From NCBI RefSeq assembly GCF_003334305.1, contig NZ_QOWS01000002.1: a stretch of DNA of 64,000 nucleotides; one strand, 5' to 3'. Of the stretch, positions 28,680-28,840 are shown one piece after another (the first letter of the stretch is position 1; the number at the start of each line of letters is the position of its first letter). Source of the stretch: Escherichia coli (GTDB lineage Bacteria > Pseudomonadota > Gammaproteobacteria > Enterobacterales > Enterobacteriaceae). The translations under genes and the position numbers were made by a program. Under the pieces are notes generated by a model. That model ran no database searches. It was given only the letters and a program-made list of their open reading frames with translations, and was not told the DNA's origin.

Positions 28680-28703
28680 CCCTGCTTCGGCGGGGTTTTT
28701 TTA
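28680..28703 (+). terminator. Rho-independent terminator after narI
   Basis: Stem ccctgcttcggcgggg followed by T7. Confidence 0.55.
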
Positions 28704-28704
28704 T

Positions 28705-28795
28705 GGGCACGGTGCGGGGTGAGTTGTCGGATGCGCTTCGCTTATCCGACCTACAGGGGAGGATATTGTAGGCCCGGTAAACGTGGTGCCATCGG
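28705..28795. repeat. REP/BIME-like palindromic units
   Basis: ggatgcgcttcgcttatccgacctac and gcccggtaaacgtggtgccatcgggc resemble REP consensus; assignment by eye only. Confidence 0.4.
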
Positions 28796-28840
28796 GCAAA
28801 ATTAGCTCGGAGTAACAGGTTTTGATTATTTAAGGAAGCG

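Follow-up and report, generated by a model that had tools for sequence, protein, structure and literature searches.

The intergenic region between the narGHJI operon and the tyrT-RtT unit of Escherichia coli is very probably a 3'-end zone in which three separate elements of known kinds lie side by side: an intrinsic terminator for rightward narGHJI transcription, the repeat pair REP108, and a Rho-dependent stop for leftward tyrT-RtT transcription. The feature is already known in its parts, since REP108, intrinsic terminators, the Rho-dependent end of the tyrT operon, and RtT have all been described. A first-pass annotation of the window (the whole 64-kb stretch of DNA that we analyzed, whose positions are used throughout unless K-12 is named) had proposed that a hairpin after narI and two REP-like palindromes together insulate the convergent units in both directions. 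Its reading of the narI terminator, the identity of the REPs, and the location of the leftward end were borne out by our analysis, but self-sufficient bidirectional insulation was not.

Setting of the terminator and REP108

The stretch carrying the terminator and REP108 is the intergenic zone between the convergent narGHJI (plus strand) and tyrT-RtT (minus strand) units (Table 1). The 761 bases around it are 100% identical to strain A28 and have a match in 5426 of 5426 complete E. coli genomes. The sequence of K-12 MG1655 is the same as that of the window at the REP108/terminator zone, with K-12 positions equal to window positions plus 1257868. RefSeq calls the identical sequence narI in both A28 and K-12, and the narI stop codon occupies 28656–28658. 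On the far side of the zone, the promoter-like TTTACA-16-TATGAT is, from its position, likely to be the tyrT promoter.

Table 1. Features of the narI to tyrT intergenic zone and its flanks, in window coordinates.
Feature	Position	Strand	Basis
narI, last gene of narGHJI, respiratory nitrate reductase gamma subunit	27981..28658	+	225-aa ORF
Intrinsic (Rho-independent) terminator of narGHJI: G+C-rich stem, UUCG loop, T7	28677..28702	+	Terminator scan, folding, conservation
REP1, z1-like unit, CTAC end 3' on plus strand	28726..28754	+	z1 consensus match, fold, REP108 annotation
Linker between CTAC and GTAG ends, 13 nt, AGGGGAGGATATT	28755..28767		Read from sequence
REP2, degenerate unit, inverse orientation, GTAG 5' on plus strand	28768..28798	-	Head/tail motif, REP108 annotation
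In vitro Rho-binding (rut) peak, K-12 1286609-1286798	28741..28930	-	bioRxiv 10.64898/2026.03.23.713779, supplementary table
C-rich, G-poor spacer with Rho position 28824	28799..28841	-	C/G ratio, Rho score
RtT RNA unit	28842..28973	-	Rfam RF00391, 134.2 bits, E = 4e-29; RefSeq 'RtT sRNA'
tRNA-Tyr (GUA), sole tyrT-type gene of the strain	29020..29104	-	ARAGORN and Rfam tRNA
Promoter-like TTTACA-16-TATGAT, 5' of tRNA-Tyr	29155..29182	-	Promoter scan, 10/12 matches with TG

The plus strand additionally holds a 90-aa open reading frame (28841–29113) that overlaps RtT and tRNA-Tyr and is the counterpart of the K-12 ychS annotation; it is most likely not a gene. Because of the ychS annotation, REP108 is classed as "tandem" and not "convergent" in the table of bioRxiv 10.64898/2026.03.23.713779. 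Other Rfam matches in the window were a Trp leader (62250–62343, minus strand) and two rdlD antitoxin RNAs (12111–12176 and 12647–12712, plus strand).

A single RtT unit and a single tRNA-Tyr gene (28842–29104, minus strand) are present in the window strain, against three RtT units with tyrV and tyrT in K-12 (L001 4067–4623). Copy numbers vary widely across E. coli genomes (RtT 1–3, tRNA-Tyr 1–2), a pattern that fits unequal recombination between 178-nt repeats. In the single RtT unit of the window strain, a TGA at codon 10 breaks the frame that is annotated in K-12 as tpr ("protamine-like protein"; 28863–28952, minus strand). The strain is therefore without an intact tpr, which argues against tpr as a needed gene.

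An intrinsic terminator follows narI

We found the strong hairpin with seven T's that the first-pass annotation had placed directly after narI. The sequence AGACCCTGC-TTCG-GCGGGGTTT, followed by further T's, starts 21 nt past the stop codon and would form the RNA hairpin CCCUGC-UUCG-GCGGGG (CCCTGC at 28680–28685, TTCG at 28686–28689, GCGGGG at 28690–28695), with the T7 run at 28696–28702. A terminator scan returned the hairpin with a 9-pair stem (28677–28698). The hairpin folds at −13.5 kcal/mol, and the 48 nt around it give a z of −3.2. With a G+C-rich stem of 6–9 bp, a UUCG tetraloop, a U-tract of seven directly 3', and a position past the last gene of the operon, it has the anatomy of a canonical E. 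coli intrinsic terminator.

Unlike canonical terminators of the bidirectional type, in which one hairpin has an A-tract on its 5' side and a T-tract on its 3' side, the narI hairpin has no upstream A-tract and thus is not of that type. The sequence 5' of the hairpin is TTCACATAG; the minus strand therefore reads CUAUGUGAAC past the stem and has no U-tract. Read from the minus strand, the hairpin is weaker, at about −9 kcal/mol, and the terminator scan predicted no minus-strand terminator in 28400–29400.

Among aligned E. coli alleles, the terminator stem differs in only two strains, by a one-sided change from U.G to C-G, and the terminator is retained in strain E69, which is without the REPs. 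Anatomy and conservation together suggest that narGHJI transcription would end in vivo at the U7 hairpin. The curated Term-seq tables of Adams et al. 2021 (aerobic LB and M63) contain 0 3' ends within K-12 1286500–1287099, because the anaerobically induced narGHJI operon is silent in aerobic data sets.

Two further observations concern the hairpin. In strain N47 (L007 1685–3005), an IS4-family element lies in the narI terminator hairpin at about window 28690, with an apparent 9-bp target duplication, and splits narI from its U-tract. Rfam also scored STnc100 at the terminator with 17.6 bits, below its gathering score of 47 (E = 0.55); we rejected this hit as terminator-to-terminator similarity only.

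The two palindromes after the terminator are REPs

The two imperfect palindromes 3' of narI, which the first-pass annotation had called REP-like, are true REPs. Comparison with the y, z1, and z2 consensus sequences quoted in PMC11208160 showed that REP1 (GTCGGATGCGCTTCGCTTATCCGACCTAC on the plus strand) matches z1 at 26 of 29 positions; this was the only such match in the window, and 100 shuffles gave 0. A search against REP consensus sets had been suggested as a check, with failure to match counting against the assignment, and the outcome was a match. REP1 folds into 8 pairs, a 1x1 mismatch, and 2 more pairs (−12.6 kcal/mol). REP2, which reads TGCCCGATGGCACCACGTTTACCGGGCCTAC on the minus strand, is degenerate: 18 of 21 head and tail positions match (1 + 2 mismatches) and the loop has diverged. 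The REP2 fold has 5–7 pairs with an A.C mismatch (−9 to −10.6 kcal/mol), which is no better than shuffles.

We scanned the 64 kb with a head/tail motif (GCCKGATG ... TTATCMGGCCTAC), counting mismatches separately for each part. REP1 has 1 + 1 mismatches and REP2 has 1 + 2, and all other candidates have at least 4, apart from a longer alternative that overlaps REP1. Two matches with three or fewer mismatches were thus observed, compared to 0.025 expected from 200 Markov simulations of 64 kb. By this motif, the window has a single REP locus. One REP locus per 64 kb is fewer than expected for E. coli.

Both units have the conserved GTAG/CTAC at the foot of the stem that belongs to the definition of REPs (PMC3333891), and both are imperfect palindromes of 30–40 nt with an internal mismatch. 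The CTAC of REP1 (28751–28754) and the GTAG of REP2 (28768–28771) face each other over the linker, which at 13 nt is shorter than the ~34-nt L linker of the BIME-1 that follows narI in other Escherichia. Textbook BIMEs are either z1-L-y (BIME-1) or tandem y-S-z2 (BIME-2), whereas REP108 joins a z1-like unit to a degenerate one; given the inverse orientation and the short linker, REP108 would be best called an atypical single BIME. The pair is extragenic.

When REP1 and REP2 were aligned with six other REP copies, 98.4% of the cells in the 8-pair stem were paired. The same eight-copy alignment showed compensatory changes at two stem positions, and none of 500 shuffles reached the observed covariation. 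At a permissive threshold, a 107-nt query covering the REP segment matched at a median of 8 sites in each E. coli genome. These include a paralogous pair of the REP108 subtype (GTCGGAT...ATCCGACCTAC plus GTAGGCCCGAT...) in the ybdG-pheP intergenic region.

The REP assignment is confirmed by two independent lines of evidence. First, REP108 is listed at MG1655 1286595–1286666, between narI and ychS (supplementary table, bioRxiv 10.64898/2026.03.23.713779), which corresponds by offset to window 28727–28798 and matches the REP1 and REP2 pair. The pair in the window is identical in sequence and position to REP108 of K-12 MG1655, a member of the REP/BIME family (units y, z1, and z2), with nothing different at the element. 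Second, in strain Ecol_224 the insertion sequence IS621 sits in REP2 (L006 1700–3010) at the equivalent of window 28771/28772, and both junctions read AG (CT on the opposite strand), which places the insertion at the CT core of ACCGGGCCTAC. Known IS621 targets in REPs are ATCAGGCCTAC/ATCGGGCCTAC with a CT core, and the Ecol_224 target ACCGGGCCTAC is one mismatch from the published ATCGGGCCTAC. IS621 belongs to the IS110 family and has a bridge-RNA recombinase.

The RepRanger supplements consulted have no entry for the narI-RtT locus. The RefSeq feature table of MG1655 shows no REP features, rendering the absence of REP108 from it uninformative. That table is likewise without a REP feature at the MG1655 site expected for the genome element numbered REP1. 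We rejected a promoter-like element on the minus strand of REP2 (ATGGCA-16-TACAAT, 9/12) as a chance match, since 0.7 such sites per kb are expected in shuffles.

The narI 3' flank varies among strains and species

At least 80% of the 107-nt REP segment is present in only 4686 of 5426 complete E. coli genomes. The segment is absent from about 14% of them, and 688 records have only weak matches of 60–80% identity. In E. coli GN04171 (L008 1–6000, L009 16590–18001), a seven-gene island fills the space from narI to tRNA-Tyr. The island replaces the terminator, REP108, and RtT, and it ends 16 nt from the 3' end of the tRNA; a different hairpin lies 3' of narI. Its products are a ketoacyl-ACP synthase III (KAS III)-like protein, an epimerase, an MBL hydrolase, an F390 synthetase-like protein, a PAP2 phosphatase, and two desaturases, one a sterol desaturase-like protein and the other a fatty acid desaturase. 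The ~13% of E. coli records without a close REP108 match may carry this island too.

A different arrangement is found in E. albertii, E. whittamii, and two further Escherichia (L010, L013–L015), where a canonical BIME-1 (z1, ~34-nt linker, y) is followed by the seven-gene island. This BIME-1 starts 13 nt past the narI stop codon (L010 946–1090), and no U-tract hairpin precedes it. The BIME-1 of E. albertii, E. whittamii, and the cryptic Escherichia clades is like REP108 in being a REP pair 3' of narI with its CTAC/GTAG ends toward the linker, but it differs in its z1-L-y composition, in having no U7 hairpin before it, and in being followed by the island rather than RtT. Because BIME class, position, and the following island all differ, the two pairs are independent insertions, and the narI 3' flank has acquired REPs repeatedly.

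REP-less and interrupted alleles also occur within E. coli. Strain E69 (L012 8150–8300) has an unrelated AT-rich segment of ~115 nt in the place of REP108, before the RtT unit, and is thus a natural REP-less allele. IS elements interrupt the terminator/REP108 segment in two strains (IS621 in Ecol_224 and the IS4-family element in N47). Among aligned E. coli alleles, REP1 is almost invariant, and REP2 has two transitions that weaken its stem. These polymorphisms, C73T and C93T, give G.U pairs on plus-strand RNA only, but independent alleles are too few for this to count as a sign of selection. Taken as a whole, the comparison of alleles marks REP108 as a lineage-specific, dispensable insertion.

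The leftward transcript ends Rho-dependently in K-12

The leftward tyrT-RtT stop is Rho-dependent in K-12. The Rho termination region for the tyrT operon is placed at 1286692 on the minus strand (Adams et al. 2021, PMC7815308 Supplementary file 2; Rho score 64.6, p = 1.5e-181), which is window 28824; derived from 800-nt coverage windows, this position may reflect RNA processing and not the point of release. The leftward transcript thus ends in the same intergenic region, as the first-pass annotation had required. Upstream and downstream reads in the 800-nt windows number 1413 and 12 in untreated cells and 1592 and 873 with bicyclomycin (PMC7815308), so that the downstream/upstream ratio rises from 0.8% to 55%. 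Since downstream reads increase from 12 to 873 when Rho is off, polymerase passes both REPs and the narI hairpin into antisense narI.

Window 28824 lies between RtT and REP108: in the direction of transcription, the CCA end of the last RtT unit is 18 nt behind it and REP2 is 26 nt ahead. The C/G ratio of minus-strand RNA is 4.0 at 28811–28840 and 3.25 at 28841–28870, and across the 30-nt windows between 28870 and 28691 it takes values of 1.1–4.0, a composition of the kind required of rut sites. A Rho-dependent terminator of the tyrT operon was reportedly described by Kupper et al. in 1978 and by Rossi et al. in 1981. In a more recent data set, an in vitro Rho-binding peak, whose coordinates we moved to the window through the identical K-12 sequence, was seen both with and without NusG and overlaps REP108 by 57 nt; a bicyclomycin-sensitive transcript spanning 1285622–1287409 overlaps this peak (bioRxiv 10.64898/2026.03.23.713779).

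The Rho-dependent stop probably also holds in the window strain, whose sequence is identical here; the Rho data come from K-12 with three RtT units and two tRNA-Tyr genes, and with one of each in the window strain, Rho loading could differ. The leftward transcript would, as in the K-12 tyrT operon, end Rho-dependently and distal to the RtT repeats. The distance from promoter to Rho zone is ~650 nt shorter than in K-12 because of the lower copy number of both genes.

These data bear on the proposal of a factor-independent bidirectional insulator, in which the narI hairpin and the two REP hairpins stop both convergent polymerases. The position between convergent units fits such a role, the REPs fold on both strands, and REPs between convergent genes have been proposed in the literature as bidirectional terminators or decay blocks. 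However, the read-through with bicyclomycin indicates that the structures do not stop polymerase without Rho. The minus strand, moreover, has neither a U-tract after any hairpin nor a predicted terminator, the narI hairpin folds more weakly on that strand, and the REP2 fold does not exceed shuffled sequence. For the leftward direction, the insulator is largely refuted by the K-12 bicyclomycin data, and we consider the model as a whole very improbable.

The Rho data could also be read to mean that REP108 is integral to the tyrT Rho-dependent terminator, acting as a pause site, a roadblock, or a section of the Rho-loading region, and thereby shields narI from antisense transcription. The overlap of the Rho-binding peak with REP108, independent of NusG, points in this direction; so does REP325, a partially Rho-dependent terminator, and Espeli et al. 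2001 are reported to have found that BIMEs cause Rho-dependent attenuation. Against this, the best Rho position is reached by the tyrT transcript before it enters the REPs, strains that lack REP108 (E69 type) or carry an IS in the segment persist, and REP fragments of 2–4 hairpins are insufficient for Rho-dependent termination (bioRxiv 10.64898/2026.03.23.713779). We regard an integral role as distinctly unlikely. REP325 (yjdM-yjdN), a proposed terminator and mRNA stabilizer, resembles REP108 in its 3' UTR location and in having Rho involved close by; it differs in having 12 units and a function backed by deletion data, whereas REP108 has two units, one of them degenerate, and at most a putative function. 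In the survey by Dar and Sorek, REPs are found at only 24% of Rho-dependent 3' ends, and a protective role is favored.

Some BIMEs bind gyrase or IHF, and the very strong tyrT promoter faces narGHJI, which together would be consistent with an action of REP108 on the DNA itself, for instance as a binding site for gyrase or a nucleoid protein through which positive supercoiling between nar and tyrT is relieved. The 13-nt linker differs, however, from the L linker, in which the IHF site is found, and the model element REP325 has no effect on chromosome structure. The supplements consulted of a gyrase cleavage map have no entry for narI, ychS, or these coordinates, which is weak evidence in the same direction. 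A role of this kind seems exceedingly improbable.

Discussion

The reading that we prefer, of three separate elements in one 3'-end zone, assigns each direction of transcription its own stop. Rightward narGHJI transcription would end at the hairpin plus U7, 21 nt past narI. On the leftward strand, Rho would load on the C-rich RNA that extends from the end of the RtT unit across REP108, and tyrT-RtT transcripts would stop at about 28824. Between the two lies REP108, a single inverted REP pair, an atypical BIME, from a repeat family spread by a REP-associated transposase. Repeats of this family accumulate between convergent genes, and about 60% of E. coli REPs lie in such positions.

Most likely, then, the REP pair is a passenger that the locus tolerates, and any role that it has would be accessory. 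Two such roles can be envisaged: the pair could block 3' exonucleases on narI read-through RNA, or it could be a pause or structure element of the tyrT transcript in the Rho release zone. Of note, given the overlap of the Rho-binding peak with REP108, the contribution of the REPs may exceed that of a passenger. In its stronger form, REP108 would be a working, strand-specific part of the tyrT Rho terminator, such as a pause or structure element in the Rho-binding region, and its natural variants would set antisense narI-narJ levels. We think this unlikely. If true, the natural variants (intact REP108, IS621 or IS4 insertions, the AT-rich replacement, and replacement by the seven-gene island) would lead to differing nitrate reductase expression between strains.

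Beyond correct annotation, the significance of the locus is small. A REP pair beside a terminator between convergent genes should not be taken as a self-sufficient insulator; here, it would be Rho that keeps strong tyrT transcription out of narI, with the REPs as a dispensable, strain-variable passenger. Because the locus exists with the REP, without the REP, and with an IS-interrupted REP, it may serve as a small natural test bed for REPs as terminators versus RNA stabilizers.
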